Positions 6,201 to 62,408 of a stretch of 64,000 nt of DNA are shown in pieces. Below the pieces are notes generated by a model. That model worked only from the letters and a program-made list of their open reading frames with translations, was not told the origin of the DNA and made no database searches. A program made the translations under genes and the position numbers. Numbering within the stretch: position 1 is the stretch's first letter; each line of letters opens with the position of its first letter. The stretch is from Amoebophrya sp. A120 (taxonomy: Eukaryota; Protista; Dinoflagellata): assembly GCA_905178155.1 (NCBI GenBank), contig CAJINV010000007.1, positions 283,279 to 347,278 of the forward strand, read 5' to 3'.

Positions 6201-9200
6201 AGTAGATTCTTTACATGATTCAGATTTAGCATGACAAGTTGCTTTGCTCCAGGCCCAGATATTTTTGCATTTGATATTCCGCCTCCGCGTGGCCGAGCGC
6301 CCGCATGAAAACGGTCTCACCCTCCACGTTATCGTGAAGAAAAATCCCTCCTCCACATACTCACAATGGAAATTTGTGCTGCTGATTTGTGACCACGAAT
6401 CAGCTCTGTCTTGCATATGAGGCAAATGGGAGCCGTGTGGCGCATTCCACAGCCAAGCTGTCGTGCGCTTCTGCCTAATGCAAAGCGGTTTGTCATGCCT
6501 GCGGAATTGCCTGAGTGCTAGCCTTTTGCATATTTTTACCTGATCAGGCTTAGAAAATGGAATGCCTACAAGCTCGCTTGTTGCAATACAGCTCTGTGTA
6601 CAGAAATCCAGCAACAGAAATTTCCGTTTCAATATAATGGGGAGGTGGCTTTTTTCAACTTGATACACGTCCCGGGCCTGGAACAGTTCGTAAAGAATCA
6701 TATCGCTCTATGAATGTGCACAACCCCACCCCCTCGTCCCTCTCGTTTGTCATGCAAAATCCCAAATCCAGTCGCTGCCTTGTGGCACTGTTTGCATCAC
6801 AAATTTATTTATCGGGAAGCCCGAATAGAAATAGTTGTATTTTTACACATAGGCACATAAATTTGTTATGCATATGCACAGGCTCCATGCGTGCTGGCGT
6901 GGTCATGTGTATGGCTCTTCATGCCAACCTACAAATGAGGGGGAGGGGACGAAGTTGTGCACTCTCGTACCGTCACCATTCTGTCGTTTCCGATGTTTTT
7001 CGTGGAGAAGAAGGCCAAGCTCAAATGGAATCGCAACAGATCTTGATTGCCGCTCGCCTGCGCTGCTACGTGCAGCGGCGACCGTCTCAGCAGGTCTTTT
7101 GGCGCAAAAAACAGCTGCCATACGGCCGGGAAGGACCCAGCCTGTATCCTGTGTAAAAACGTACCCCAGAGTTGTCATGCAAATGCGCAATGACAGGAAG
7201 ATTTGTAATGCGCACTTCCATGAGAGGCATTTCCAGTCGTGTTTTGGAATTTGTAATGCTGTAAACAGGACGAGAAAATGGCTTTGTCATGCGGCTTTCC
7301 TTGCCAGCCAGTACTACACTGCAGATGGAAACTTGTCATGCAGAACCTCTAAAACTTGGGGATTTGTGTTGCAGACTTCCCATCTTGACTATGGTGTGGG
7401 GACGTTTTTACATAGGATAGCCTCCGGATTTTCGCTTTCCCTTTCTCGCTTCTCAAGTGCGGTTTTCAGCAGTTCCAATTCTGCGATGTGGCCTATCAAA
7501 AGGAAAAATGCCCCCTCCCCGTATCAAAACGGAAATTTGTGTTGCTGATTTGCGACCACAAATCATGTTGTCATGCTGGAGGGCAAAGGATGCGGACTGT
7601 AGTGCTGGCTGGCGTTGGAAAGCCTTGCATCTTCAGCATGACAGGAGGCAACTGGAAGAGGGAAACAGCATAACAAATTGCCTACAATTCAGGCGACAGT
7701 TGCGTCTTTTGCCTTTCTAGCAATACAAGTCGATTTGTGTACGCAAGTCCAGCATCACAAATGTCCTCTTCGATATGGGGAGGGGGGGTTTTTCCTCGCA
7801 ATATGGCCGAAGGGCGCGTCCTTGTGAAGTTTTTGCGTGCCCTCCGCACGCAGAAACCGAATTTGGTCCGCAAGCAGCGCCGAGCCTTCCCAGTCTTTTT
7901 CCTTGTCGTCTAACACTATCTTCAGCTTCGAAAAAAAGACCCCGGCCATCTGCAGGGTACTAGTCCGCTCCCCGGCCCCGGAATAGAGAAGATGAAAATT
8001 GCTCCGGCCTGCATTGTATCAAATGTAAAAATGTCTGGGTCTGGAAAAGTGGAACCTGTAAGTATTGCGTGGTTTGGATCTCTGTAAAATCTGTTTTGCA
8101 TGACCAGGAAAAGGAGCCTTCTTTTGTCATGCAAAAGCGCAGTTTCTCATGCGCACTACGCATGAGGAAGTGTCCGAAAAATTTGTCATGCTTGGTCGCA
8201 CTCAGGAGCATGTTCAATCATCGCCACCCAGCATCACAAGTTTCCAGCAGACCCAGACATTTTTGCAGGTGATACATTGTCTGCCCCCCGAAGCCAAAGA
8301 CGCGGAAACGTGCTTGCAATCGACCACTTGGGCTCCTGTGTTTCATCTTCCCGCCACACGTAATCTTTTTTCACTGCGTCCCATTCGAACATCCTATCAA
8401 ATGCAAAAGTGTCTGGGTCTGGAAAACTGCCAGACTTGTCATGCAGGTTTTCCATGACCCATGAGGTCTGGTCTGTAGGACAGAGCATGACAAATTCTGT
8501 GCGATCTCTCTCATGCCTATCCTGCATGAGAAACTCCCTCCCGACTTGGTCAAAACTGGACGACTTTTGGTAATCCGACAACACAGATTTTTGCATGTTT
8601 CAGATTTAGCATGACAAGTGTCACTCTTCCAGACCCAGACATAGTTGCAGTCCATACATCCCCTCGCGTGGCAATTGAATCTTTCCGAGCAATTTTTCCA
8701 TGAAGATGACATCCCGCTCCTTGCCCTATCACACAGAAAAAAGCTGGCAGGGCATATCTGTCATGACAAGTACTCGGAACAGCTTACATATCACAAGTAG
8801 ACGCGCATCTTGTGCAACTTGTGCGCCGTTTGTGATTTCAGGTCTTTTCGAAAACCGCTTTCTTCTTCCTCGCCTTGAGCGCTAGCCGAAGCCCAGTTGT
8901 TCGTCCTTTCTGCGCCCATATATGTGCGGCGAATGCGAAGCCTGTTCCTGTAAGAAGCTCAAAGCCAAGTCCATTCGTTTTACTTTCTAAAATTTGCGCC
9001 TTCTTTCTCTTATGAATATGTGTATTTATTTTTGCATTACAAATACCAGCCATGCCCCGGCTGACGCCGGGGCGCAAGGCTGTTGGGGCGGGGCAGGACT
9101 ATTTGCGGATCGGGCCACAGCGACAGGGCTTTACGGACAGCGTGACAGATCGAAGGAAGTTTCGGCGCCGGTTTGCGCCATGTCAACCCGCAGGGCCTCC

Positions 9201-12200
9201 TGCGCGCTTCCCGCGCCTTCAGGCGCTATGCGCAGAGAGCAGCTGCAGCGAAGCTTGAGGGCGAAGAGAAGCCGCCTCGGCATCGGTGCCGAAGCAGAAC
9301 TCGGACCGCGCTGCCCTTTGTTGATCACACACACGCCCGCCCCCGCCCAACTGGCTTCCCGGCGGAAGCTGTTGGCGCGAGCGGTTAGCGCGAGAGGGTC
9401 CGCGAGAGGGTGCGCGAGAGGGTGCGCGGGGGGGTAGCGCGAGAGGTGTGGGCCTACACCGTGAAACAGTCCCACCAAAATCGGCCTCGTGCTGGGCGGA
9501 TTCGGTTCTTTTTTACCCCCTCGCAGGCCCTCTTTTTGGCCTCTCCCAAGGGGTGTGGCTAATAATCCGGCTATACTCGCCGGTAGAGGTCTACAGAGGT
9601 GGCCGAGAGGTGGCCCAGAGAGTGCGCGAGGGGTTCGCCCTTATTCGCGCAACCTCTCGGCACCTCTGTCCCCCTCTCGCTTACCCTCTCCCGGCCCTAT
9701 CGGCCACCTCCGTCCCCCATAGGCGCGGCTTTAGGGCGACCGGTTCGGCTGGCTATACTCGCGCCACCTCTCGGCCACCCTCCCGAATGACCTCCCGCGC
9801 CACCTTTCCACCTCTGTGGACCTCTTTTTGACCTCTTTTCACGTCTTTTTGACCTCTCGGCCACCTCTCTTCTATCCTCTGTAGACCTCTTTTTTCGCAT
9901 GAATATAATAGATAGTGATGCCCTCCCAGCTTTTTTCTCTGGGATATGCCCATCCGGATGCGCATGCCACTGAAGGTTTCCGCTGTCTCCACCGAAGTGC
10001 TCGACCAGAGCTGCATCACCACCCACGAAACAAACAGGTCCTGTGCGGCTATCGTACCGGAGATCCGGTAATTTAATCCCAGCCTAGCTTTAAAAGCATC
10101 GATGTGCTTTTCCGAGACTTTGGCATCGCAGTAGGTGTAGAGGTGCCAGAGGAGGAAAGGCGAATCCACCTCCTGAGGGGAAGATGAAGAAGGGGTTGTG
10201 GACGACCACGCAGCAGCTCCTTGTCCTGAGGCACTACCACCTCTTCTACCTTGAGCAGCCAAATCCGCTTTGGTACTTCTGCTCATCCGGTCGTTCGTTG
10301 CCAGGTCAAGAAGACCAGCCGGGCCCCGTCCCGGCCCGGCGGTGAGAAGCCCCGAGCGACGGCGCACCTCGTCCAAGTGTGGCTGGGGAGGATGGCCTGC
10401 CGCTTTAGTAGAGTCGTGGTAAAATTTTTCGGTGTATGGATTGCAAATATAATGTCTGGGTCTGGAAGAATTCATGTTTGTCGTGCTTGTCTGGCATGAC
10501 TCTAAAATCTGTCATGCACGTTGCCCAAGAGCTCCGTTTTTCTGTGATGCAGAAGCGCAGTTTGTCATGCAGAATAGGCAACACCTAGGAGCTCAGAAAC
10601 TTGTGATGCTGTGCCAGCATTTGTAGCCTCCTCATGAGACGCCACCCAGCATCACAAGTTTCCAGACCCAGACATTTTTACTTTTGATACGGTGAGATCG
10701 CCGAGTCTGCGCTCCGTCCCGTAATACATCTCCGATACCAGATACCCAAGGGCCAGCGCGTTTCTGAACCCGTTTGCATTCCCAATAATCGCGTCTGCCC
10801 TGGAGCTATCAAAGAACGCACATATGTCTGGGTCCGGAAGTATGCAGATTTTTCTCATGCTATGTTTCCATGACCCAGATCCAGCAGGTCTGGCATGCCG
10901 GGCATAGCATATACAGGTTTTGAGAAGTAGGTGGAGCGCCGATGCCTATATACACATGACAAATTGCCTATTTTGCGGTTGACAAGGATTGGCAATCTTT
11001 GCTGTCTGTGCTTTTTTGTGTCTTGTGAAATGCGCATTACGAGTTCCACCTTTCCAGACCCAGACTATGTTGCACTTGATAGGAGCTCACTGCGATCAAA
11101 ATCGTGTGCAAAAACTGCGGGTACCGCGTCCCTTGTGCCGACTCCAGCGAATCCAGGGCGTAGAAGACTCGCCGCGCCGGACACGCCGAGACGTCGCTTT
11201 TTGCGTCCTCGCATGACCCGAATGATCCATCGCCCCTTGTTGGCAACGATCTGCGATGATGAACCAGAAATTGCTGCTGCAGTTGCAGATCTGGTAATTC
11301 CTTTTCTTTCATCAGAGGTCCAGTCTGAACCCCCGCGCCAACCTGGTTCGCCGTCTGATGCGTGAACCTGGATACTGAGCGGCTACTCAGAAATTTCGCG
11401 TAGTCGATCTCCATCTGTAGGAGCCGGAACATGAGGCTTGCGATATCAAAATGAAAAATCCCCCCACCCCATACTCAAACTAGAAACTTGTGACGCAGAT
11501 TTGTGATCACAAATCAGCTCTGTCATGCTAGAAGGAAAGACATGCGGAGCGTAGTGCTGGCTGGAGTGGGAAAGCCTTGCGCCTTCAGCATGACAGAGAG
11601 CAACTGGAAGTGGGAAACAGCATGACAAATTGCCTGCACCCGAGGCCACAACTGCGGCTCTTGGCCTTCCAGCATTACAAGTCGATTTGTGTACACAAAT
11701 CCAGCATCAAAAATTTCGTTTTGATATGGGGTGTGGGCTTTTTTCATTTTCATATGCGAGATGCTTCCAATTCTGGAGGATTCTTTTCGTGGTCACCAAC
11801 TGGCGTTGGCTAGCAGGATTTCCAACATTTTGCTGCAAAAACGATCCGCCCCCAAACAGCAAGGTCTCCGCATCGCGCACTTTGATCCATTTCTATAAAA
11901 GTGCACAACTCCCCCTCCCCCTCAGCTGTCATGCAAAATACCCAATCCTCTCTTTGCCTCTTGGCATTGTTTGCATGACAAGTTCTGGCAGCCCAAATAG
12001 CACTACACTCCAGTGCAAATTTGTCATGCAAAACCAGCATTCTTGCTGATGCTTGTATTGCCATTCATGCTATACTCAAATGAGGGGGAGGGGGAGAGGG
12101 AGTTGTCCACTGTCATAATTTCAGGATGGGATCCAGAAACGATTTGTGCTGCGTATCAACTGCAAACGTATCGCACTCGTATAAATGCATTGCAAATTTC

Positions 12201-20007: not shown

Positions 20008-23000
20008 CTAGGGCGCGGGTTCGATGAAGACGTAGTACATTGCGACCGGCCGGTCTTCCGACCAATTTCTGCGGTGCGAGAGCTGCCCGTAAGAACGTTT
20101 GAGGTCCTCTTCTTTCACCGGCTTCAGGACGTTTCCTTCGTGGTCAAGCTGTACGGAGGTCGCGTTGAAATTATCATCCGGCGGACGGACCGTGCCGCCT
20201 TCGTCCCGCATCAGAAATCTGGTCATGCCACGCAACCTCTTGTCCTTCAGCCCGTTGACCTCGTCCATCGGAAATCCGTATCAGAAGGAAAAATCTCCCC
20301 TCCCCATGATATTGAACATGCATGCTTCCGAAAATTTGCGCTGCGGATTTGAGGTCACAAATCACATTTGTATTGCAAGAAGACAAGGGCAGAAGCTTCC
20401 GCCCCATTGTGGACGCGATTTGTCATGCTGTTGGGCCTAAAGGGGAGCCGTTTGCCATGCTGAACAAGTAGACCCATACGCCCCTACCTACCCTGGTGAC
20501 CTGACCGCAAAGCCTCTCTGCAGTACAAAGCTGACTTGTGTACACAAATCCAGCATCAGAAATTCCGTTTTGATATGGGGAGGGGGAATTTTTCAAGTCC
20601 GTAATCCGAGAAGCGCGTTTAGCACGAGAATCCACTGCGGTGGGTCAAAGCCCTCCCAGACGCGGTTGCGCCCTTTCTGCTGCACATACAGTTTGTCACC
20701 CCAAATACCCACGTACCGGCGATAAGTTTCGGGAAAAACATCACGGTTGCCCTATCCTGAGTAAAAACGTACCCACACCAGAGTCAAGTTGGCAAATCTG
20801 CTAGACAAATCACACAGCTTTGGTCGTTTGGCATGACAAGTTTGTCCTCGTAGTGTAATCCTGTTTCGCTAGCTCAGAAGCATTACAGATCTAGCCTACA
20901 ATACTGATTCTAGCATCACAAATTCCAAAACACGAATAGAAAATGCTTCTCATAGGGCTCCGCATGAGAAACTTTTTTGGCATGCAGAATTGCATGACAA
21001 CTCTGGGGTGGGTACGTTTTTACATAGGATATGGCCCACGGATGCTCCGAGTTAGAAGAAACTTCCACTTTTTCAAAATCGAAATCCGAGGGTGTAACTT
21101 GCACTTTATCCTGTGCAAAAGTATCGTACTCGTAGTAATTGCAAACATGCATTACAAATCTTGCTCCTAAGGTAAATCCGCATTACAAATTTCATTATCT
21201 CATGCTGAGGAAATTTGTAATGCATCTTTTTTTTTTTTTAAATACAAATCACAAAAATAACGCAGCGAAATATCACATAGACAACTTCAGATCGGAAAAA
21301 GAGGTGATCCAGGCTCGTCGTCCTTGTTCTATCGCGGCATCGTATTCGTGGTTCGTAAGTGCCATCTGACCCCTTCGCCTTTCGGCTCCAGACTGCTTGT
21401 CCCTTCTCGTCGCGACATGCTACAGTTGTTCACATGGTCAGCAGGCGGCGAGTCACACCACCGAGTTGTTTCCATCCTCGCTGTGCAAGAGAGTCAACAA
21501 CCGTAGTGATGCAACAACGCAGGTGCTATGTTGCTCTTCCTTTTTTCGGTGGTGATTCTGTACCTGTTCCTAGAGCCCACTGGTCCGCCCCTCACGCCTA
21601 AAAAACTAAGCCTAAAGGTCGGGAAATCTCGAATCACATTTGCGTGAGTTTTGAAGAAGCAACTTTTGGGATCCTGATTTGCCATGACATGCATGGCTGG
21701 GCGCAGCGCGACTCCTGAGACCTTAGAGGGGCTTGACAGTGTGGCAGCGTGACTCCTGAGACCTTAGAGGGGTGAGGCAACATCAACCCTCCTACACAGT
21801 CGAACATGAGTGAGAACTTCAACACCGCAGCAACTCAAGGAAGGGAGCAGAAGCCGGGCGAAGAAATTCACACCCGAACTTTAGGTCTCCTGTTTTGGGT
21901 CCATTTGTAAAGAAATAAAAAGCGACTCGCTGTGGCCTTTTTTAACGTTAGGAGTCACGCCCTAGCGACATCTTTATCTTTGCCCTTGCTTTGCATCCCC
22001 GCCCGAAAAAAAAACGCGAGCTAGTAACAGATAGAGAATGTCGTTGAGTCTGTTGGGGCATCAGGCGTAGTGGACATCTAAGCTGCCTACTCCACTACCC
22101 CATCCTTTGCCCCAACTGTGGAATCTGCTTGGTTTTGTGTGTTGCTTTTTTAGCCAATCGAACAACGAGCGCTAACGCTGTAAAACCGCGATACGCAAAC
22201 AGATATCGAAATCGAGATCCTCTATCCTGCTCAGCTAGCCCTCCCCATACGAACCTCTAGGCGATACGAAAATTTGTAATGCATCTATACGAGTACGATA
22301 CTTTTGCAGTTCATACACCTTTTCAAAATCGAAATCCGAGAGTGTGACGACGTGCTCTGCTGATGAAGATCCACTGCTGTGCCCAGACAACTCTGGCTGC
22401 CTTCGGGTACCAGATTTTTGAGTGATCAGATTGTTTATCAAATGCAAAAGTGTCTGGGTCTGGAAGGATCCGAACTTGTGATGCGAGTTGCGGACCAAAC
22501 AAAGATCTGTCTTGCATGACTAGCAAATAAAGGTTCTGACTTCTGGCCATTCTGAGAGGGTATTTCTGATGCAGAATTATAGGCATCACCAAGGGGCTGT
22601 AGAACCTGTCATGCTAGGCCCCGCATTCCAGACTTGAGGGAGCTTGGAAAAACTGCATGACAAACTTGCACTCTTCCAGACCCAGACATATTTGCAATGC
22701 ATATTGTTCGCAGCGGTGTTATTTTTCATCTGCGGTAGCATTTTCGTGCTAAACTGAAACCAGACGTCTGCCGCGGTTATCAACTGTAAAAGTGTCTGGG
22801 TCTGGAAGAATCCAACTTGTCATGCTGATTTTGGATTCTAAAAAAATCTGTATTGCATGGGCAGCAAATAGAGTCCAAGTCTTGCTACACGGAAAGAGCG
22901 TCTGTCATGCGGTATAGGCATCAGGAAGCCCTCACAAAAGCTGTGATGCTAGGGCATGCATCACTGACATCAGGAGTCATGCAAAATGTGCATGACAAAC

Positions 23001-26000
23001 CTGGCAATCTTCCAGACCCAGACATTTTTACAGTTGATAACGGTCTTCAGGAACTGATTCTTCCCCGACGAGGGCAAATCATCCGGCAGCGTGAGCGGCA
23101 GCCCAGGACTGACCCAGACGGCCGAAACCCGCTGGCCGGCTTGGGCGCGGTACTCGATTTCTCGGCGGTAGTCGGCATCTTGGAGGAGGTCGGACCCCAG
23201 CGGCGCCAGGACTTGCACCACTTTGTACTTGCTGCGGGGCGTGGTGGGGTCCTCGAGGAAGGTCTCTAGCAATTCCAAGTACTCAGCTGGATGTGCGGTG
23301 GAACCGACCAAACGCTCCTTCTATCAAATGCAAATATGTCTGGGTCCTCTGGAAGAGCCATGCTGCTTTTGCATGACACAGGAGGTCTGGCATGGAAGCT
23401 CTAGCATCACAGATTTATTCGAGCAGCTTCCGCAATGCCGAATCCGCATGACAACTTATGGCCCACTTTGGTCGTGACAGAGAGTGGGCTGCAGCTTTTG
23501 CTGCCTATCATGCACGAGAGATTTTGATGCGTCGTGAAATTTCCGCATCACAAGTTTGCATTCTTCCAGACCCAGATCGATATTTGCAATGCGTACCTTC
23601 TCGTTCGCAAACTCTTCCCTCAGCCACACCAGGCGCGGATCGGAGTTAAACGCCTTTTCATCCTTCGTCCTAGCGGCGTTGTTATCTCCGCCCCGGCAAA
23701 AGACGTAGTACAACCCGAGTGCGAGGCCCAGGCACGCCACCAACGCGATAATGCCGACGGCGATCCAGATTGCGCGCGCCTGCTTCTTCCGATCCTCCAG
23801 CATTTTCTCATGCGAGAGGCCGTCGCCGTATTGCATATTACCGGCGCCAAACAACGCAGTTTTCAGGTCGATGGCCATCTGCCGGGTGAAGCCGGTCCCA
23901 GCGGGCTCGGAGAGAAGAACGAAGTCGTCCTCGGAAATGGAGAGGCGGTATGAATGTGCACAACTCTCCCTCCCCCTCGTTTGTCATGCAAAATACCTAA
24001 TTTACCACTTGGCTCTTGGCACTGTTTGCATGACAAGTTCTGGCAGCCCAAATAGCACTACGCTCCTGTCCAAATTTGTCATGCAAAAAGTGTATTATTG
24101 CTGACGCTTGTATTGCTGTTCATGCAATACAAATGAGGGGGAGGGGGAATTGTGCACTTTCATAGGTGCTGCTGAAGATCTTCTAGTTGCGCATCAACTC
24201 GCTGCTCTCCTTGGTAGGGTGTTGATGTTGGTACTACTCCACTTGCAGCAGGATTCTTTTCAACGTTACTTTGCTTGTTTTCATCCACAAACGCCAATCG
24301 TCTGCTCGGTTGACGTTCTGCTTCCAAACTTGATGTCCTTGCAGCTAAAGGCGCAACAGTTTCATCATCTTCGCCCGAAACCGGCGCACTCACTTTCGCC
24401 GCGGAACCGCGAGTGGAAGTAGACTTTGGCAGGAGCGGAGCTCGTTGCTCCTGAAGCTGCTGGTCTTCTTCATTTCGACGCATCGCGCGAGGAAAACCAG
24501 CCCGCTCATCCGCCGGGTCGACTTCTTCATCAAATGTTGTTGCGTTGTCTTTACTAGCTGTTGGCCTCGACCACGTCGGTTGCCGCCCGTTCACATTCTG
24601 ATTGGTATCATCTCTGGTGGACGTCGAAGAAGAAAAAAACCTTTTCCTCTCCTCTTCGAAGCACTGCTCGAGTATCCCAAAGAAAAAAGCTGGCAGGTCA
24701 GATTTGTAATGCAAGAATAAATAGACAAAACGCTCTGTCTTGCATGTCCTAAACAGCATGCTATGGCGTTCCCCATGACAGATTTTTCTGTGTATTTATT
24801 TTTGCATTACAAATCTGCCCTGCCAGCTTTTTTCTGTGTGATATCGAGTTTTCTCCGGAGTCCGCACTTCTTCGCGGGAATCTCTTCGGAAACGAACAAT
24901 AATCGCCCGTTGTTCCGGTCGTGGACCGACTCCACGAGAAGTTTCGCCTATCCTGAGTAAAAACGTCCCCACCCCACTGTTGTCATGCAGATTTGCAATT
25001 GCAGGAAGATTTGTAATGCGCATCTCCATGAGAGAGAGGCATTTCCAGTCACGTTTTGGAATTTGTAATGCTGTAAACAGGATAAGCAGATCGATTTGTA
25101 ATGCGGCTGCACTAGCTAATCTGCACTACACTACGGACTGAACTTTGTCATGTGTGGCTCCCAAAGCTTCTGGTTTTGTATTGCTAAGTAGTTCCCAACT
25201 TGACTATTGGGTAGGGACGTTTTTACATATGATATCGCCACGCGCCGGAGCAACCCCAGGCCGAACCGACACGCGACTTCCCGCTGCGGCTGGCCCTGGC
25301 TGCAGACGGTGGGGACGCCGTAGGACTCGAACACCTTCCCCGCCGTGTGCGTGTAGCAGCCGAGAAGGATGACAAATTTGGGCAGTTTGTCGTCGTCGGA
25401 CAGCTATCCCGTACAAAAGTATCGCACTTGTTGTATTGCAGTCATGCATTACAAGTCTTTTTCTTTAAGGTAAATCCGCATGACAGATTTTATCTCTCAT
25501 GCTAAGGAAATTTGTAATGCATTTACACGAGTACGATACTTTTGCAGTTCATAACAGCTCCTGGAGAAAAGCGTTCAGTTCGGAAAGCGGAATCTCCTCC
25601 TTGCCGAGCTTCAGGTTCTGCTTCACGTGCTTCAAGGCTGAGGGATATCAACTGTAAAAATGTCTGGGTCTGGAAGAATGCAACTTGTCATGCTAAACCT
25701 GAATGATGCAAAAATCTGTGTTGCGTGAGTGCCAAAAGCTGTCCGCTTTTGACCAAGTTGCGAGGGAGTTTCCCATGCAGGAGAGGCATGATAGAGACCT
25801 CAAAGAATCTGTCATGCTGGGTCTCGCATTCCAGACCTCATGGGTCATGGAAAACTTGCATCACAAATCTTGCATTCTTCCAGACCCAGACATTTTTACA
25901 TTTGATAAGGGAGCGGAGGATGATATTTCAACATCTGCAGTTGGCCCCGTTGTACCAGCAGCAGCTCCAGGTAGTTGTAGTAGTTGCTGCGTCTCCTCCT

Positions 26001-49536: not shown

Positions 49537-50679
49537 TCATAAAGTAGAACTATAGAACTTTTACTCGGATTCTTCGCCCTTATAGATTATAGGGGCGCCC
49601 TTAGAAAATGAATTCTAGAAAAAAGGGCATCTAGAAACTTCCCCTAAGGGAGCTCCTAGGGGACGCCTCTAAGGGAACGCACTAAAGAAACAAAACGACT
49701 GGAAAGGCGGGGGCCAAAAGTCATGCGGCACAAAATAAACAAAACCCAGCGCGCGGAGTGGCCCGCGGGCCTCGCCCCATGGCCTGAAGAAATCGGAAAA
49801 AAAAAGCCGGGCCAGTTTTTAGCAGGCCTATTCTGGCTGCCCCCAAGCCCCGGCCGCGTTTGGGGGGGGGTAGGCGGGGGCGATAACCAGTGGCAAAACA
49901 AGATGGGGACGGTGGCGCCCGGATATCTGGGGATATATCTGGGGATATATCTGGGGATATATCTGGGGATATATCTGGGGATATATCTGGGGAGATATCT
50001 GGGGATATATCTGGGGAGGTATCTGGGGAGGTATCTGGGGAGGTATCTGGGGAGGTATCTGGGGAGGTATCTGGGGATATATCTGGGGATATATCTGGGG
50101 ATGTATCTGGGGATGTATCTGGGGATGTATCTGGGGATGTATCTGGGGATGTATCTGGGGATGTATCTGGGGATATGTCTGGGGATATATCCGGGGACAT
50201 ATCTTAGTTAGTAGGAGGGGGGGCCGTTCTAGGAGCGAGTTAGTTTTTTTTGGAAGAGGCCCCAGCAGGCGAGCTACTTGGGAATGATTGAAGGGGCCGG
50301 CGAAACGGCAGGGGAGGCGCTGCGGGTGGTCCTGCCTAGAAATGAGACAGCCCACAAGAGGGCAATCAGGGCAAGGCTCGCGGCCGGGTGAGGGCGAGCT
50401 AGAAGCTGAGCTCAGGGAACGAAAGCGGGCGCGCCCCCTAATGTGGGCCGCTACTAGGGCAGGGCGTTACTAGCAAGCGCGTGCCCGGTTTGCCATGCTA
50501 AAACCGCCCGCCGGGTTTCTAGTAGTGGCCGCGTTTGCGCTAGGTAGCAAATTCCCAATGGTAAGAGTCTTACGACTAGCCTGCGCCCCCACGCTCGCCA
50601 AGTTTTTTCCTTGGTGTTTGCATTTAGACTTACTAGACGACCTATCGCCGGCGTCCTGGACGCCGGCGTAGTAGTCTAG
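49537..50679 (+). mobile_element. Putative non-autonomous Helitron-like element (5' end tentative)
   Basis: Perfect hairpin CGCCGGCGTC-CTG-GACGCCGGCG (50646-50668), 7 nt, then CTAG|T; candidate A|TC start at 49537; internal 12-bp minisatellite. Confidence 0.55.
49921..50204. repeat. 12-bp tandem repeat (GGGGATATATCT and variants), ~23 units
   Basis: Direct reading; variant blocks GGGGAGGTATCT and GGGGATGTATCT. Confidence 0.95.
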
Positions 50680-50863
50680 TACACTTACAAATGCAGAGTT
50701 GATGTTGATGTTGTACACATTATGTCTAAAAGTCTTCTTAGAATCTGCAATAAATCATCCAAAGCATGTAGGATCACCAGTTTGATGACCTCATCTTTCC
50801 CAGCGGCTGGTGTCTCTCTGTTGTTCTTTTCCCTTTCTACACATCAGTCAGTCAGTAGCACTA

Positions 50864-53800
50864 CTACAGAACCACCACTGGTCGCAGCTGTTTTTGGTTC
50901 TGCGCCGCTTCTGGTTCCTCCGGGCGCTTCTGCGCCCAAAACGGACTGCAGTTCTTGGAAGCGTGGAATTCAATATTTCTGGCGGTGGTCAAGAACCTGT
51001 TCGGCTCTTGTTGCTGTTCCACCCTCGCAGCAGTGGTATCAATATCAAATGTAAAAATGTCTGGATCTGGAAAATTGGAACTTGTGATGCTGCATTTGGA
51101 TGGCAAAAAAATCTGTATTGCATGAGCACAAAGGGAATGCAATTTTTGCTACGCGGAGATGGCATTTGTAATGCGGAATAGGCATCAAGAAGGCCTCAAA
51201 AAGTCTGTGATGCTAGGGCACGCATCACAGACATCAAGACTTACGCAAAACCTGCATGATAAGTCTAGAAAATTTCCAGACCCAGACATTTTTGCATTTG
51301 ATAATCGGTTCGCAACGTGTTGAGAAACCCGCTCTGGGACGGTTCCGTCTTCGGCTTCAGCATGATCGTAAAGGCGTTGACTATATCAACTGCAAAAGTG
51401 TCGGGGTCTGGACGAGCGCCAGACTTGTCACGCAGGTTTTCCATGACCCATGAGGTCTGGTATGTAGGACATAGCATGACAGATTCTGTGAGAGTTCTAT
51501 CATGCCTATACTGCATGAGAAACTGCCTCTCGATTAGGTCAAAAGTGAACAGCTTTTGGTAATCATGCAACACAGATTTTTACATGATATAGATCTAGCA
51601 TGACAAGTTGCTTTGTTCCATTTTTGCATTTGATAGACAACCTCTGCGTCATCCGCTACCTGGATGGCCGTGTCGACAAACACCTTCTCCTCTGGATCGT
51701 GAATAAAAAGCCCGTAAACCCCCGCGCCGAACAGCTTGTGATCCTTTCCCGTCGCCCGGTAGCCCGTGTAGGGCGGCGGAAGCTCGTGGGGTAAGGGCTT
51801 TGCTACGTGTTTGAAGATAGAAGACTTAATATTTTGTTGCCCCTGGTGTCGATCCACGGAGCTCTTACCCACTAGTACTTCTCCTTGGGAAGCAGCGGCT
51901 GGCACAACCTCGACGTCCCCGTCTCCTGCCGGAGAAGTACGAGGACCAAGTAGTGGTGGCGCAGCACAAGAAAATTGATCTCGTCCATCGGCGGAAGTAG
52001 CGGAAAACCCCCAATCCGGCTGGATGTCTATCAAAGGAAAAACAGCCCCCACCTCATACTCAAAAGACAATAATCATAATGGATTTGTGTACACGAATGA
52101 GCTTTGTGTAGTTGCAGCAAGACCTCTTTGTCGGTATATTCTAACCCTATTTGGGTACGCATCCGGCTAGCAGCTACTTAAGCATGAGAAACAAGTCTGA
52201 CATAGGCGAAAACGCATGACAGACTCGCTGCACAATGCGCCACATGGGTGCCGTTTGGTGCCTTGTACGCAAGACAGAGCTGATTTGTGGTCACAACTCA
52301 GCATCACAAATTTTCTTTCGGATACGGGGAGGGGACATTTTTCCTTATGATACTGTCGTAGGGGAGTTCGCACTGGTAGAAAACCGTTTTCCCGAAATCC
52401 CCGGTCCACTCCTATCCTGTGTAAATAAAACGTTCCCACTCCAGATTCAAGATCAGGATCGCGCAACACAAATCGAGAAGTTTTGGGAATCACGCAAGAA
52501 AGGTTTTTCTCTGCATTGTAAGTGCAGTTTCGCAAGCACAGCCGTGGATCACAGAGCCATCTACCTATCCTGTCTGCAGCACGACAAGTTCCAAAGCACG
52601 ACTGGAATAATCACTATTCTTGCCTCTCATCTTCATCATGGGGATGCGCACTACAAATCTCTCTTTGACTGCAAATCTGCATCACAACTCTAGGGAGGTG
52701 GGGACGTTTTTACGTATCGATAACTCGACCTGGTTCTTCAGCAAATGTTCGACCGCAAGGCCGTACGCCGCCACGTGATTCCCTTTCACCCGCAACCCGG
52801 TGTAGGCCGGATTCTGTCCGTTCCCGATCTGCCCAGTCTTGGCGTGGTCCGCGCGCCAGCCCCAGTAATTCTCGAGTACTAGGTATGCTCTGCAAAAGTA
52901 TCGTACTCGTAGTAATTGCTGTCATGCATGATGAATCTCCTTTCCAAGGGAAAACAGCATTACAAGTTTCATTTGTCATGCTAAGCAAATTTGTAATGCA
53001 ATTTCTACTAGTACGATATCGCTTTTGCCATGCATACAACGAAACTGCGGTCGATTTCCAGCATGGTGTCCACGGCACGAAAATCTTCGCTCGGGTCCTG
53101 GTTGTCGCCACCCTATCAAATGCAAATATGTCGGGGAGGTCTGGAGACTTGTATGTAATGCTTGGTTGGGAATAGTGCATGCTCTGTAGCGCACAGCCTT
53201 GCATGAGAAATAAGGCCAGCGCCGCTTAGTGTTGCGTTTTCCGCATGACAAAGACAACCTGCGTCTTTGCATGACAGGCAAGAGGCCCTTTTCCTGCTCA
53301 TGCAACACAGATTTAAGAGTCATGCTCATGCCAGACAAGCATGACAAAAGTGCATTCTTCCAGACTCAGACATATTTGCAATGCCTACACCAACGCGGAT
53401 TACAATGTCCTGCAGGACCGCCGTGTTGATGCGGCTGGGCGTTACTTCATTCGCGGCCATCGCCTCCTTTATGTGCGCTGCCGTACTAGTAGAACTAGCA
53501 GCAGCAGCTACGCCAGTTTTATCATAATTCTTTGCTCTGTGCTGGCCCCCTTCCCCGGCGTCCTCGAACTCCTCTCCACGTGGCAGCAGCTTCGGTCTTT
53601 TGTGCTCAGGACCAACTTTTTTAGCAGTTGTTGGACTCGGTTTAGACATACAAGAATCTTCTTTATCTTCCCTAGCAGCACACACTGCTGAAGGAACACT
53701 ACATCCTGAGCCTTCGGGGGGAGGAATCAAATCAGAACCAGAAGATCCCCCAGAACCAGATCCTTCAACCCCCCGAGAGGATAAAAACGCCCTGAGTCTA

Positions 53801-56800
53801 GTACTTCTTGACGGACATGATATCGAACGACCAAGGACCGACCACCTAGGGGACAAACTGAGACCCCGCAGTCTCTTCGAAAGGCTATTGACGGCCTCGT
53901 CGTCGACGGGTGCGCCGCTGGCACCACAATTTTCAGGACCACCAATATTCGCCGTTGTATCACCATGAGTCTCATGATCTACTTGTTCTTCTATCTGCAT
54001 TCTACTAGTTGCACAGCCACTACAGTGATGATTTGTGCCTTGCTCTACTACTCCTTCCATAGCGCCAGTAGCATCGGGACGAGCACTACTAGTAGTACTA
54101 TTGACAAGGCCATGTTGGCCATGCTGCTGCATTTCATTTTGATGTCCTGCTCGGCTGTCTTCACTGCTAAATAAACAATCTCCTGCACGGCCATACGATT
54201 CTTGTTTTCGATCTTCCGCCGTTTCGACATATATTTCCGGCTCCATGACGCGCAACAATCGGGTGTAGCTGAGATTCTCTCCCTGCTTTTCTTGCGGCTC
54301 ACCGTTCATTTCCGTTTCCACCAGCCCCGACCCCTTTCCAGGCTGCAGGGTGAGCCCGGCAACGATAGGGGAAGCGGCCTTGATTTCCATCGCCGGGAAA
54401 GTGCCAAGCGTCTCCAGCATGGCAAACCCGAGACCAAGCAAAACCGGGCGGCGGGTAAGAGAGGACAAAGGCTGTTCTTCACCTCCTGCTCCGGCGGTTT
54501 CGAAAACCTATTGGCAATACAAGAAGCAAGTATAGATCGATAAGATGGAGCATTGCAGACCATGTCTTCGTGTCGTGAGGCATGCTGATAAAAACAAAAA
54601 TGTTGAGAAAACTTGTACATGTTTGAGTAAAAGTACTATCACAAACGAAACACCACCTCGACCGTTTTGAAGATTTCTAGCTGCGCATAATACTATACAT
54701 AGGTACCTGAATCGGCTCGGTGAGTTGGTAGATGCCCGGCGTGAAGACGATGTCTTTCTTCTCCACATTTAACTTGTGATTGATCACCTTCGCAACCTGT
54801 TCCATCTCTGGCCGGGCAACAAAAATGTTTGAAAAGGGCCGGGTCTCTTCCGCACGGAGGATGGTTTCAGCTGCAGCAGGAGCAGTACCTTGCTGGTGAT
54901 GTTCTTCAGCATTTATTTCCTCTCGGTAGGTCAAAGCGGGGACTCTCAAGTAGTACCCACTGGATAGTACACGACGACGGCGGTGCAGATGGGAGTCCGA
55001 GCAGTCCTCGTCGCTGCCGGAGTTCTGCTTCTTCGCCGATGAACATTCTCCTTCGCGTGGTTCATCGTGGTCGTTCCCACTTTCGTAAAAAATGTACGGC
55101 TTCGACTGGAAAACGAACCCGTGGTTTTTGCTATTGGGTGAAGATTTTTTTGCAGTAGTAGCGGTGGACGCAACTGTCCTCGTCGACAAAAGTACCTGCG
55201 TGACGGCTGCGTTGGGGTTCACTTTGTCCAACGGGCCTCCGCGGTGGGATGATGCACTTCTTTTCATCTTCTCGGTAGAAGAGGAATCCCGATCCTCTCC
55301 AAACCCGAAGTCACACTGCAGCCCGACGAAGCTCCAAGCACCGCCACTGGCCCCTTTTTCCGCTTTGGTGTTCACAAACAGGAACTGCTGTTGGCTGCCC
55401 AGCGCTAGCTATGCATTGCAAATTGTATGTCTTGATCTCTGGAAGGTTTGTCACGATTGTCTTGCATGCAGTTGACATCTGAAGGGTTTGTAATACGTGA
55501 TGTCGTGTCCAGGAAGAAAAGACCCTTATTTTGCCAGGCGTGCAGTAGCATGCAGAGAACGCATGACAACATAAATAGCGCAAATATTTCTCTATGCTTT
55601 GCGGCGCAACATAAAAGTAGCTACACGGCATTCACTATTCACATCCCAGCATTTTTAGTACAAGTTTCCAGACATTCAGAGAAGATATTTGCGAATGATA
55701 CCAGCTATCCTGTGCAAAAGTATCGTACTCGTATCAATGCTAATGCAAGTCTTGCATTACAAACCTTGTTCTCAAGGAAGATTAGCATTACAAATTTTCT
55801 TTCTCATGCTAAGGAAATTATTTGTAATGCATTTATACGAGTACGATACTTTTGCAGTGCATACCAGCTCCCCCCTCACCAAAACGTCTGCCATGAAGCC
55901 ACCGCTGGTGTTTCCGTAGTATTGCAAGGAAAAATCCCCCCTCCCCATACTGAAAAGGTATATTTTTGGAAATTTGCGATGCTGATTTGTGGCCACGAAT
56001 CGGGTCTATCTTGCAAGAAAGCAAAGCCAGAGCCTTCGCCGCTTTACGCCGGCGATTTGTAATGCTGCTGCGCTGACAGGGCAGACGTCTGCCATGCTGA
56101 GCGCCCGCCTCTAGCCAGCCCCTTCCAGGCTTTGCATCTGCCTGCAGTCCTCTACTGCAAGACAAAGCTGATTTGTGTACGCAAATCCCGCAACACAGAT
56201 TGTCACTTTGATACGGAGAGGTGGGATTTTTCCTTTTGATACGTAGTCAGGGGTATTCATCTTGAGATGCAGGGATTGCAGGGAGCGGGTCGGTGGTGGA
56301 TCCTGGTCTTTTCCATCTTCACTGTGATCAAAGAACAAGCGCTGCTTGTTCTTTTCTTTTTCTACTGCTTGTCGTTGTTCTTGTCCTTCTTCAGCTTCGT
56401 CGTCTTCGTCGGAAGTACTGTCATCACAGTACCCCGGAACATCTTTCACGGGGCCATACATGAAACCCTTGAAGGGGTCCGCCTTCCCGCACATGTCCTG
56501 AAACATCATCAAGCGAAAGTCTCCATCAACAATTAACCTCCGAAACGGGCTTGCCTGCGAGACCGCGGCGTTAACCGCCCCGAGAATCCGCATGTTTTCC
56601 ACGGACCGCCAGAAGTTGCAGGTGCCGCCGGGCCCGAAGGTGAACTCGCTGGCGTTCGGGATTTGCAGATGCTGAATTTTTATCCTATGCAAAAGCATCG
56701 TACTCGTATTGCAACCATGCATCACAGATCTTTCTCTTAAGGTAAATCCGCATTTTCTCATGCTGAGAAATTTTGTAATGCATTTATACGAGTACGATTA

Positions 56801-59586
56801 TACTTTTGCAATGCATAATTTTCACTTGATCAGCCGTCTCCCCAAGCCCGTAGTACGCTTGATAGTACCCCGGAGTGATGGAAATGTCTCTATAATTTCC
56901 CGGTTTGAACAACACTTGCACCCGCGACTGGTCCGATCGGTCAAACTCGCGACCCGGGTACGTGGGGATCTCGGTGTCCCGGAAGTTGTTCACAGATATC
57001 CTGTTTGGTTCGTCGCGCTTCAAATTGTCGAAAAGCTGCTCGTATGAACTGCAAAAGTATCGTACTCGTATAAATGCATTACAAATTTCCTCAGCATGTA
57101 ATGCTGATTTGCTTTCACAAAAAAAATTTGTGATGCAAGACTTGCATTTATACGAGTACGATACTTTTGCACAGGATAGCTCGCTCAATCTATTCGCCTT
57201 GTGCGGGATCCTCGCGAACTGACGGCCCTTATAAAAAGGAAAGATGCCCCCCCATATCGAAAACGAAATTTGTGATGCTGGACTTCCGCACAGTCTTGCA
57301 GTAGAGGACTGCAGGCCCATATCATGCCAATGTCGAGCGGCTTTGGCCTAGGCCCTTAGCATGAGGAACGCGAACGTCTATGCTGTAGGACCGACAACAT
57401 TACCAACCGCCTGCATAATGGGGCGGAGCCCATGTCGTTGCTTTCTAACAAGACAAACACGATTTGTGGCCACATATCAGCATCACAAATTCGCTGAGGC
57501 GTTCCTTTTCCATACGGGGAGGTGGGATTTTTCCTGACGATAGTCCTGGCTGGGACGCTCACGGTTGCTCAGGATAGAGGATTTCTGCAGGCATTTGGGG
57601 TAGAACTTCTCCCCTCCAGTGGATACACTGCTGCGTGAACACCGACGACCGGATGAATCTTTATGTTTACCATCATCTAATATCTCGTCGCTAATATTTC
57701 TATCCGCGGGGGCTTGCTCTTGACGGTCTTTTCCACCAGAACAAGGTCTTGTTTCTAATACTGTAGAAGAAGCTCTACTTCTGCATTTCTGTTCCATCTC
57801 CTTCAGCAGCAATAGCCCCTTTTCCGGGCACGACCCCCGTTCCAGTGCGTAACCCAGAGAGTCCTGTCCGCCCCAAATGTTTCGCTCGATGTTCGTTTCG
57901 AAATTCCAGGGAAACCAAGGCTGGTCCTTTGGGTAATTCGGCCGGGGCTTTCCTTCAGAGAAGATGTTATCCAAGACTGTCTGCAGATTTTTCGTTTCCG
58001 CATCATTCTTCGGCGGCTCGATAACAACAACGTGGTGGCCCCAGTCCGGGTGCATAGGCTCCACCTCGTCGCAGTTGTTGTATAATTGTGCGTAAGAAAA
58101 ACGTGTGTGTCCCCTTCCACTCCGAGACTTCTTGCTATGCATACTTATTTGCATGCCCAGATTGTTGTAAGTATCTCATGCGCAGTTGGAGCCTGATGTT
58201 AAGCAGCAGTTTCTTATGCTGTCTGGAACTTTTTGGTGATCCTCTAATCAGCAAAAAGAGCCACTTAGATTTGTGATGCCTCTGCACTAGCCAACCATCG
58301 GACATCAATCCTAGAGACACAAACTTGTCAGGAGGCCAGATATTACTTACCCAATAAACCTTGTTGGTTTGTGTTGCAAAATTCCTATGCTCACTCTGGG
58401 CTGGGGACCACGTCGCTACTTTTGCTCAGGATATTATGTCTTGTCCTTGTCTATTTTCCTCTTCTGCCACAAAGAACTTGGACAACATCCGGACGTCTTG
58501 ATGCGCATTACCAACAAGGAGATCATGATCTACTTCATGTTCGTCATCATCTGGCACACCTGCAGAAGTAGATCCCGTCTTCAAAACAGCCGCCGAAACT
58601 ACTGGTGCGCCGGCACTTGTTTTTCCGGACCACAACGGGAAATAAGAACCACAAAAAAGTTCCGCCGTAAAGAATATGCATTGCAAAAATGTCTGGGTCT
58701 GGAAAAATGTAGGACTTGTTATGCTTGTCTGGCATGCCTCTTGGATCTACTGTGATGCGTAAGCAGGAACGGGGCCTCTTGCCTGTCATGCAAAAACGCA
58801 GTTTGCCATGCAGAAAACGAAACACATGGCAGTGCAAAAACTTGTCATGCTTGGCTGCATATTTTAGTGCGCCCACCATTCAGAGATTTGCATCACAAAT
58901 TTCCAGACCCAGACATTTTTGCATTTGATAAAGAACAGCTGCAGTGCTGTTCCCGCCGCAAAGGAAATCATCGTCCTGAAGACCGCAGACCGAGCTATAT
59001 CAAGGTGAAAAAAAATTCCCCCTCCCCATATTAAAATCGAAATCTGTGATGCGGGACTTGTGTACACAGCTCGAGTCTGTCTTGCAGTAGAGGACTGCGC
59101 GCAGATCCGAGGCCTAGGCTGGGGCCTTTTGCTGTAGGCGCCTCGCATGACAGACATCTTCCTTATAGGCCTTACCGCATTACAAATCGCCTGCATAGCG
59201 TGCCGGACTGTCTGCACTTGCCTTCATGCAAGACAGACAGCATTCGTGGTCACAAATTTGCATGGCAAATCTTCAAGAAGGATGCACTTTCGATATGGGG
59301 AACGAAATTTTTCCGCACAATAAGCTAGTCCGGACGAAGGTAGTTCGCGATGGAAAGAGCATGTGTCTTCCCCAGCAGCACGACGAGCGGAAAACTTCCA
59401 ACGTGGAGAATCTTCACGAGCGGAGGTGCGACGTCGACTTTCGGTGCTACGCAAATGGAGGCTGGTGAATATTTTCCTCTTATTTTTTCCAACCAGGAGG
59501 ACACTGCGAGAAGGCGAATTTGTTTCCGAAAACTGTTGTGTCTGTCCTGGGACAAAATTTTTTTGCTGGCTAAAAATAAACGACAT
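50864..59586 (-). CDS. Multi-exon gene (15 introner introns + 1 canonical intron): bacterial-type GH55 exo-beta-1,3-glucanase (laminarinase)
   Basis: Spliced motifs appear in the order known from Streptomyces-type GH55: VLFKPGNY, GYYQAYYGLGE, NFWRSVEN, AVSQASPFRR, TSGGFMAD, GSQQQF, FTPGIY, VLLGLGFA, LQDIVIRVGG, WGWRADH, AYGLAVEH, VFYQCELPYD, HKLFGAGVY. The start codon (59586) and last exon are less certain. Confidence 0.85.
51043..51303. mobile_element. Introner family A
   Basis: DR ATCAA/ATCGG. Confidence 0.85.
51384..51635. mobile_element. Introner family A with a deletion inside the right TIR
   Basis: DR GACTA/GACAA; GACCCAGAC missing from right TIR. Confidence 0.85.
52029..52352. mobile_element. 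Introner family C, degenerate
   Basis: DR ATGTC/CTGTC. Confidence 0.85.
52413..52722. mobile_element. Introner family B, degenerate
   Basis: DR ACTCC/ACTCG. Confidence 0.8.
52884..53036. mobile_element. Introner family F, degenerate
   Basis: DR CTAGG/CAACG; frame restored. Confidence 0.8.
53114..53387. mobile_element. Introner family A
   Basis: DR CACCC/CACCA; right end CCTA. Confidence 0.8.
54508..54706 (-). other. Canonical GT-AG spliceosomal intron (199 bp) in the GH55 gene
   Basis: Minus strand CAG|GTACCT...TTGTATTGCCAATAG|GTT. Joins FTPGIYQLTEPIQ to VFETAG...VLLGLGFA in frame. No TIR. Confidence 0.8.
55410..55700. mobile_element. Introner family A, degenerate (stacked against the next element)
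   Basis: DR CTAGC/CCAGC. Confidence 0.8.
55706..55863. mobile_element. Introner family F (stacked)
   Basis: DR CCAGC, shared with the neighbouring element. Confidence 0.9.
55920..56241. mobile_element. Introner family C
   Basis: DR CGTAG. Confidence 0.9.
56681..56817. mobile_element. Introner family F
   Basis: DR ATTTT. Confidence 0.9.
57043..57178. mobile_element. Introner family F
   Basis: DR GCTCG. Confidence 0.9.
57230..57542. mobile_element. Introner family C
   Basis: DR GCCCT/GTCCT. Confidence 0.85.
58081..58433. mobile_element. Introner family B, highly degenerate
   Basis: TATA...CTCAGGATA; DR TGTTG/TTATG; frame restored. Confidence 0.65.
58675..58930. mobile_element. Introner family A
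   Basis: DR AAGAA. Confidence 0.9.
58998..59322. mobile_element. Introner family C
   Basis: DR AGCTA. Confidence 0.9.
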
Positions 59587-60506: not shown

Positions 60507-61208
60507 CAGAAAGCTAGTAAACCATCACCACCATCTTCATGACACAACCCGGAGAGATCTCTCCAAGGTTCTTCGGGCGGGTCCTACCCAAAGAGTAAGG
60601 AGGTAGTGTCGCGACACGAGGTCGTTGTATTTTTAGTTTATCGAAATGTCGCTCGGATGGTGCTGACCTTTAGTTATAGATACTCGTTGATCATGATCTC
60701 TACAAAAATTGAAATTCCCAGACCACACTGACTGGAAACTCTTTTTTATACTGTGCCTGAAGAAAAAAATCGGTAGCAGAGCGGCGGAGGTAAATTGGTA
60801 TCGATATCGATATGCACTACATCATACAGTAAAATAATCTCATCGACCACTTCTATCTTTCTAAGGGTGCAGAAAACAGGATCGATTTGGCAGTTCACTT
60901 AAAGTGTGAAGATTCTCGTTCTTCCATTCTGCCCATCTCGGGAGATGATCATGAGCCGGATAATCAATTGCTATTGCACGGCACCAGCCTTGCCTTGGCT
61001 GCATTACTGGATCCTAGTACATCGTGATCTATGAAAACAGATACTTAGTACTCGACCGCTAGCTGGACTTCAGCTTTATGGAGATCTTCTACGAGTACTT
61101 CTACTGCTAGCACATCACGACTGCTCGATCTCGATCAAAAGCGTGCAGTTCTTGCAAGTTGATCTCCAGCCTCTGCCATGATCAAGATAACGCTTCGGAG
61201 CTTTCGGC

Positions 61209-61625
61209 TTGTCCCAGGTTTGTCCCACCTCTGTCTCAGGTTTGTCCAGTCCCACCCCTGGCTCAGGTGCGTCCCAGGTTTGTCCCACCTCTGTCCCAGG
61301 TTTGTCCCACCTCTGTCCCAGGTTTGTCCTCCCACCCCTGTCCCACCTCTGTCCCAGGTTTGTCCCACCTCTGCCTCAGGTTTGTCCCACCTCTGTCCCA
61401 GGTTTGTCCCACCTCTGTCACAGGTTTGTCCCCCTTCTGGCACACCCCTGTCACAGGTTTGTCCCACCCCTGTCCCAGGTTTGTTCCACCTCTGTCAAAG
61501 GTTTGCCACACCTCTGTCCCAGGTTTGTCCCACCCCTGTCCCAGGTTTGTCCCACCCCTGTCCCAGGTCTGTCCCAGGTTTGTCCCCGGTCTGTCCCAGG
61601 TCTGCCCAAAGTTTGTCCCAGATTT
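61209..61625. repeat. ~22-bp minisatellite (TGTCCCAGGTTTGTCCCACCTC; 11-bp sub-period)
   Basis: Direct reading. Confidence 0.95.
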
Positions 61626-62408
61626 GACCACGACGGACTACGAAAGCACTTAAAGCACACACGCGACTACGATCCGCAAGTACGATATACTAGGACCTTC
61701 ACACTGTCTGCTATCGGTATTTATAGTGGAATCTTGTTGTACTTGTACAACTACAACCGACATCCATATTTATTCGCGGCACACACACACACGTAGGAAG
61801 TTCTACACTTTGTCTTTCGCGGCACACATGATGATGAGCATGCGTAGTAATTTCGAACACCAGCTCGAGGTCAGGTGTTCGCGGGAAAGTTTTTTTCCAC
61901 TTCATGGAGGATTTTCCCGATAGTTTGATGTTGTCCGAATGGATTATGTTTGTGCTTACGTGAAAAATCGTACAGATGGATCATCAACACAATCTCGAGG
62001 ATGATCGTCGTGGAGCTTTTGTTCAATACTTACGTCTACATGCTTCTAGAAAAATTATACATGGTTCTGGTGCTGACGAGTCCGTTTTGGTGGAGAGAGA
62101 CGAGAGGAGCACGTGGATTTTTAAAATCATGGCTGTATGCACTGTGATTATATCTCTTTTTTTTTTTCAATTTGATGAATAAAATATAGCCAGGCGCATC
62201 AAGAGGCTCGCCACTCCCTGGCCCAACGTGTGGCCCGACGTGAAATCCAGGAGAGCACATCACGCGATTGTTGCCTTCTGTAAGACTGCCGGCAGTCTTC
62301 TACCTGCATCTTCTGCTACTTATCTATCATCTTCTGAGTACTTCACGCCAACGCTTTCGACATCGCAAAATACAATAAGTAACGCCATGAGATAATTGCT
62401 GTCAAAGT

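Follow-up and report, generated by a model that had tools for sequence, protein, structure and literature searches.

Two introners stacked on one 5-bp repeat and missing from the transcript of a GH55-like gene in Amoebophrya sp. A120

Two introners, a 291-bp A-type element and a 158-bp F-type element, lie back to back on a single 5-bp site inside a GH55-like gene (minus strand) of Amoebophrya A120, and a 459-nt segment comprising the pair is missing from the spliced contigs of that gene. Introners, double insertion and zero-nucleotide exons are already known; what is reported here is a transcript-supported stack of two known elements occurring at chance level. The explanation towards which we lean, taken as a whole, is a chance insertion of F followed by composite removal of the pair.

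According to the text of Farhat et al. (2021; PMC7789003), the removal mechanism of the tens of thousands of non-GT-AG introns of Amoebophrya is unsolved, and U1 snRNA is reported there as undetected in this genus. A stack discriminates between two models, which single introners cannot do: either each element is recognized by itself, or any two outer ends pair provided that they are compatible. The value of the stack is that of a probe of the splicing mechanism, and the two testable rules that accompany it matter more than the stack itself. One is a cut register that is fixed, as deduced from repeats with mismatches; the other is a minimum length of ~30 nt for the exons between introners.

The stack and its spliced product

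Direct reading of the sequence confirmed, letter by letter, the arrangement CTAGC-A-CCAGC-F-CCAGC at 55405-55868 of the window (the whole 64,000-nt stretch of DNA analysed), in exact agreement with the original prediction of two introners on one 5-bp site at these coordinates (Table 1). On the coding strand, the layout reads exon-GCTGG-F-GCTGG-A-GCTAG-exon, so that a single target-site duplication, matching the outer copies, separates A from F. The 5-bp repeats are perfect for F and alike at 4 of 5 letters for A, and the TAT-N7-AAA motif is retained at all four ends, both inner ends included. The window holds 75 paired elements with 5-bp repeats (73 after cleaning), of which, by end motif, 31 are A-type and 10 F-type, the F-type element at 46041 being doubtful. 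The F of the stack is 81% identical to the element at 40143, and its A is 69% identical over 108 nt to the element at 47282. Since A is the most diverged of the A-type copies and no other of the 75 elements forms so weak a 30-nt duplex from its own ends, these sequence comparisons suggest that A is probably the older element and F the younger, as had been proposed. An empty or A-only orthologous site, which would fix the order of insertion, was not found in a homologue search whose 66 candidates included just two A120 proteins.

Table 1. Coordinates of the stack, its parts and its host gene (positions in the window)
Feature	Position	Strand	Description
Repeat copy 1	55864-55868		CCAGC, sense GCTGG; version present in the spliced product
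Introner F	55706-55863		158 bp; 22-bp terminal stem intact; transcribed first
Middle repeat copy	55701-55705		CCAGC; would carry the putative shared bond between 55702 and 55701 (F acceptor = A donor), a zero-length exon
Introner A	55410-55700		291 bp; most decayed of the 31 A-type copies in the window
Repeat copy 3	55405-55409		CTAGC, sense GCTAG; altered letter absent from the spliced product
Intervening sequence	55406-55864	minus	459 nt; gone in the spliced product, with 55405-55863 as an equally good fit
Upstream exon	55865-55914	minus	would finish with 4 repeat letters under the proposed register; based on the 51-letter joint side 55864-55914 and tblastn of P0001
Downstream exon	54705-55404	minus	contig pieces in X3 and X4
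Spliced host-gene contig	50730-56599	minus	3281 nt, X3 record 1; without 9 introners and one 199-nt GT-AG intron

Other elements were noted along the window. A 1220-bp element at 8727-9946 has the same ends as the 171-bp element at 24673-24843; its longest stop-free frame is 169 codons and its interior is 80-90% identical to loci L066 and L011 of the related assembly JACKZZ01. At 21107-22315, the F ends of a 1209-bp F-family element enclose about 1040 bp with no match elsewhere in the window, and tandem arrays are present at 49864-50276 (12-bp period) and 61190-61670 (11-bp period).

The spliced product was examined over 50700-56650 in the assembled contigs of four runs from one sample (X3-X6), which are probable RNA (putative, though introns are missing). 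A join from 55404 to 55864, omitting 459 nt with one ambiguous letter and retaining one repeat copy, was found in three of the four runs (X3, X4 and X5, at depths of 11.3, 7.25 and 2.9, respectively), while X6 shows a 12-letter loose end compatible with it. From this join it follows that the single repeat copy retained is the CCAGC version. Removal of the 459 nt gives VRGELALGSQQQF. The prediction that the middle 5 bp adds no net sequence is thus seen in the spliced contigs, where the predicted junction was found rather than a different one or retention of the elements.

At the 459-nt join, the intron ends read GT..TA or TA..AG and not GT..AG, which holds for the pair jointly. As G is both the first and the last letter of the repeat, canonical in-frame GT-AG cuts would be possible, an option that the original prediction had overlooked. 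These readings (456 nt omitted, or two introns flanking a 3-nt exon, with 8 or 11 repeat letters kept in frame) were rejected, as the contigs show the 459-nt join instead.

It could be argued that the stack is an artefact in which an A-only and an F-only allele were merged. In the DNA run X1, a contig covering 53868-55730 (1863 nt, zero differences) leads from unique exon across A and CCAGC into 25 letters of F with no interruption, and its depth of 44.4 lies at the single-copy level of the other seven X1 pieces shown (35.9-53.8). If an A-only allele were present, the contig should have stopped near 55706, and its continuity therefore speaks against allele merging. The contig extends 30 letters past the end of A, where the bridging rule is 31 letters, the right-hand junction between F and exon is absent among the X1 pieces shown, and the assembly may itself derive from X1. 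Weighing both sides, we consider a merging of alleles, the misassembly envisaged in the original prediction, very improbable.

The product of the host gene is ordinary and already present in the public annotation. A homologue search with an upstream exon returned two Amoebophrya sp. A120 proteins, each 100% identical. P0001 (public A120 protein, 1046 aa, 50730-56593) maps across the stack and already contains the residues given above. Compared with solved structures, it shows four collinear stretches of similarity to 4pew, 4tz1, 4pex and 4tyv (E 3.8e-19 to 2.4e-18), and its alignment to PDB 4pew/4tz1 is free of gaps across the stack junction. Structures of this group carry the database name 'Putative secreted protein'; we take the four to be GH55 enzymes of the bacterial Lam55A type. 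The solved-structure search with the single exon 54680-55408, or with 55310-55408, gave no match, and the Pfam search of the gene product gave no family above the cut-off. P0002 (56552-59469) shares with P0001 the same residues at 56552-56593, and the public annotation therefore appears to divide one gene into two. In addition, one X6 contig (depth 3) omits a minus-strand stretch of 600 nt bounded by GT-AG within the long exon (53597-54196), an in-frame loss of 200 residues from an unaligned protein insert that is possibly an exitron.

Frequency of stacks and of short gaps

Gaps between introners were counted in the window and in at least 146 loci (429 kb, L001-L146) of JACKZZ01, obtained from a metagenome-contig scan with the A-family end pattern. 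JACKZZ01, a second public assembly, has the same introner families as the window; the text of PMC7789003 calls introner families strain-specific between A25 and A120. After the removal of duplicates, of 13 weak JACKZZ01 calls and of two window calls, 329 elements with 205 gaps remained for JACKZZ01, together with 72 window gaps (277 gaps). Expected numbers were calculated per base from the gaps that measure 34-133 nt, a baseline picked after the data had been seen. A 6-nt gap at locus L045 was false, its ends lacking TAT, and was dropped; a 28-nt adjacency at L039 was seen only by an end-only scan and stands outside the count.

A gap of exactly 5 nt was seen once among the 277 gaps, against 1.38 expected (0.29 for the window alone), and none of the 205 JACKZZ01 gaps is a stack. 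The comparison with chance proposed together with the original prediction thus revealed no excess: the frequency of stacks is no higher than chance, and they are a by-product expected from dense insertion. Further stacks probably exist, as suggested by end-to-start junctions in X1, where, among 12 listed of 184 short-spacer rows, one element end meets an element start via 5 letters (CAGGC) and one via 6. The CAGGC junction is likely another stack, of A + F type, and the 6-letter spacer would mean a 1-nt exon if real.

Gaps just longer than the stack's are rare. Between 6 and 33 nt, three gaps were seen in the window and the JACKZZ01 loci against 38.6 expected (P about 2e-13), a deficit that could be inflated by the fragmentation of JACKZZ01; in the window, none was seen against 8.1 expected. 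The floor on the gaps between introners lies near 34-38 nt (exons of ~30 nt), and spacers of 18, 22 and 27 letters exist in X1. Very short internal exons are commonly skipped in splicing. Two readings of the deficit are possible: a loss of short exons lying between introners, with selection against it, or a block on insertion beside an existing element.

The original prediction had also proposed that a preferred target site was re-used, i.e., that F entered the same site because CCAGC or its surroundings are favoured. This would resemble the tandem dimers of Drosophila transposons, described as arising from site preference in the text of McGurk and Barbash (10.1101/158386), and the second end-5 nt-end junction in X1 could be read in the same way, as could the P of about 0.10 for one stack if 5-nt gaps occurred at the depleted rate, a value that also leaves the escape of zero-length exons unproven. 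Nevertheless, the information content of the 402 target duplications does not exceed 0.007 bits per position and their composition matches the background, 268 different 5-mers occur among 415 elements, CCAGC is found solely in the two stack members, and the second X1 junction has another 5-mer. Together with the absence of stacks from the JACKZZ01 gaps and a count at chance, this makes a hot spot improbable.

Cut register and route of removal

In the host gene (51037-56242), all eight introner joints omit the element plus 5 letters. The register of the cut can be read where the two repeat copies differ, since the product then reveals which letter was kept. For the element at 52029, no more than 4 letters from the upstream copy can have been kept; for the stack and the element at 52884, no fewer than 4. 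The only register that fits all eight joints is thus k = 4, with an intron of the form N-TAT...ATA-NNNN, as inferred from three informative joints of one gene under the assumption of a single rule. The F-type element at 52884-53036, the repeats of which are alike at 3 of 5 letters (CTAGG/CAACG), is still removed as element + 5 in the four runs. By letter count, the element at 57230-57542 is also compatible with k>=4. One element end (51037-51048) has its initial six letters, TATCAA, in two copies, of which the joint takes the inner one. Under k = 4, the first intron position is G in 33% of 217 stranded elements against 27% in the flanks, and no AG excess was found at the other intron end among stranded elements. 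Judging from their legends, Figures S19-S23 of PMC7789003 may already show the cut register.

If both elements follow k = 4, the F unit (163 nt) would end and the A unit (296 nt) would start at the same bond, between 55702 and 55701, which would then be a true zero-length exon reading TG/GT. The pair could leave the transcript by one cut or by two, and the original prediction had identified the right alternatives in setting two-step against composite excision. The same mRNA results from either route, and the mature product cannot tell them apart; both may be active.

We slightly favour one composite cut of 459 nt that uses the outer start of F and the outer end of A. These outer ends match at 12 of 13 bases, compared with 10 and 9 of 13 for the own ends of the two elements, and their 14-nt duplex is predicted at -13.2 kcal/mol, while the own ends reach -7.3 and -6.7; the own 30-nt duplex of A reaches -10.5 against a median of -34.9 over the 75 elements. 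Such matches are not exclusive to the stack: 8.7% of cross-element pairs match at 12 or more of 13 bases, and 4 of the 31 A-type ends match the stack's F end equally. The compatibility of the outer F and A ends follows from the terminal motif common to all families, and Farhat et al. (PMC7789003) had already detected no family-specific inverted-repeat motifs. According to the original prediction, composite removal would prove family-specific pairing of the terminal inverted repeats unnecessary, a conclusion that does not hold, as the outer ends match each other above the level of the own ends.

With flanks of 5-25 nt, RNA folding gives the pairing of the outer ends a probability of 0.73-0.93; when the flanks are lengthened to 30-56 nt, this value falls to 0-0.18 and the own ends of each element pair at 0.59-0.81. 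The 22-bp stem of F is predicted in every fold (0.98-0.99). The folding is therefore sensitive to flank length and does not decide between the routes. As F is intact, is transcribed first and forms its stem in all folds, nothing would prevent it from being cut alone, which counts against a composite cut.

A removal in two steps would take out F first, rebuilding the A intron with its repeat, and then A, with an identical product and with the shared bond acting as a ratchet point. The consensus of ratchet points is AG/GT, which this bond would lack. When an element is removed along with one of its repeat copies, the sequence returns to its state before insertion, as in the eight joints above, and the four ends of the stack keep their conserved motif in addition to the stable F stem. 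For the intermediate left after the removal of F, folding predicts that the own ends of A come together, with pairing of 0.83-1.0 at TAT and CAAAT, and under k = 4 the F and A units would each begin with GTAT. A strictly sequential removal leaves the deficit of 6-33 nt gaps unexplained, however, and it would depend on the A end duplex that is the weakest of the 75. No single-element joint (a skip of 163 or 296 nt) was found among the 12 joints listed for the X3-X6 contigs, which is weak evidence, since contigs drop rare forms. The interior of A (bin 55476-55674) has a depth of 0 in the four runs and is uninformative on intermediates. We regard recursive removal as plausible, though on balance somewhat doubtful.

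The sequence of events behind chance insertion with composite removal would be as follows. An older A would have left a 5-bp duplication into which F inserted by chance, and the 459-nt pair would leave the transcript cleanly, likely as one composite intron. The position of the cuts would depend on the paired TAT/ATA ends rather than on GT-AG, at a constant 1 letter before and 4 after. Closely spaced introners would tend to be cut out jointly, the small exon between them would be lost and gaps of 6-33 nt would be purged, while a zero-length exon would survive, as its joint excision costs no sequence. The gap deficit is weakened as evidence for composite removal, because blocked insertion could also produce it and is silent on splicing.

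A more general and rather unlikely extension is that of a family-blind ruler, placed 1 letter before TAT and 4 after ATA, under which stacked elements would share one phosphodiester bond, transposition would make recursive splice points without AG/GT, and exons of under about 30 nt between introners would be lost jointly. If this were true, stacks would be the only close pairs freely tolerated and a natural probe of the splicing machinery.

Comparison with known systems

The introners of A120 were described with inverted repeats starting with TAT-N7-AAA, direct repeats of 3-5 nt, non-canonical ends and many copies per gene (Farhat et al., 2021; PMC7789003). As far as the text of that study goes, the elements of the stack share with them the motif, the 5-bp repeats, the repetition in the genome and, for the pair jointly, the non-canonical removal; the host protein in the A120 annotation also carries the stack junction. 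The word 'nested' is absent from its main text and supplement, in which, figures aside, no stacked pair, single register or exon-length floor is described. Stacked introners are likewise undescribed in the available text of PMC12130899, PMC9860276, PMC11282704, 10.1101/2020.10.14.339549 and 10.1101/2024.09.05.611473, in a search covering few subscription journals.

The tandem dimers of Drosophila transposons, as presented in the text of McGurk and Barbash (10.1101/158386), are double insertions with one target-site duplication between the copies, by which the target is preserved and a new one is made. The stack has the same organization of two elements around one duplication. In contrast, the dimers consist of one family, are not introns and reflect site preference, whereas the stack unites two families, is removed from RNA and shows no sequence preference.

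The nonconventional introns of Euglena are described, in the text of PMC12501133, with paired ends and cuts at fixed spacers (3 nt and 5-6 nt) tested by knock-in. Their motif is CDG/CHG, in contrast to TAT/ATA in A120, where the spacers of 1 and 4 are only inferred.

In recursive splicing at zero-nucleotide exons, an acceptor and a donor are juxtaposed and the first cut recreates the donor, as outlined in the text of 10.1101/006163, PMC8605326 and PMC5126111. These ratchet points lie within long introns, while the putative bond of the stack would read TG/GT and lack AG/GT. Finally, the [D6,7] stwintron of Lipomyces starkeyi is a complex intervening sequence whose excision may take one or two reactions, according to the text of PMC7138796. 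Stwintrons consist of canonical U2 introns, one nested within the donor of the other; A and F abut, and neither has GT-AG ends at the observed join. Therefore, the stack differs from a stwintron in being built of abutting, non-canonical transposon introns that yield the same product by either route.
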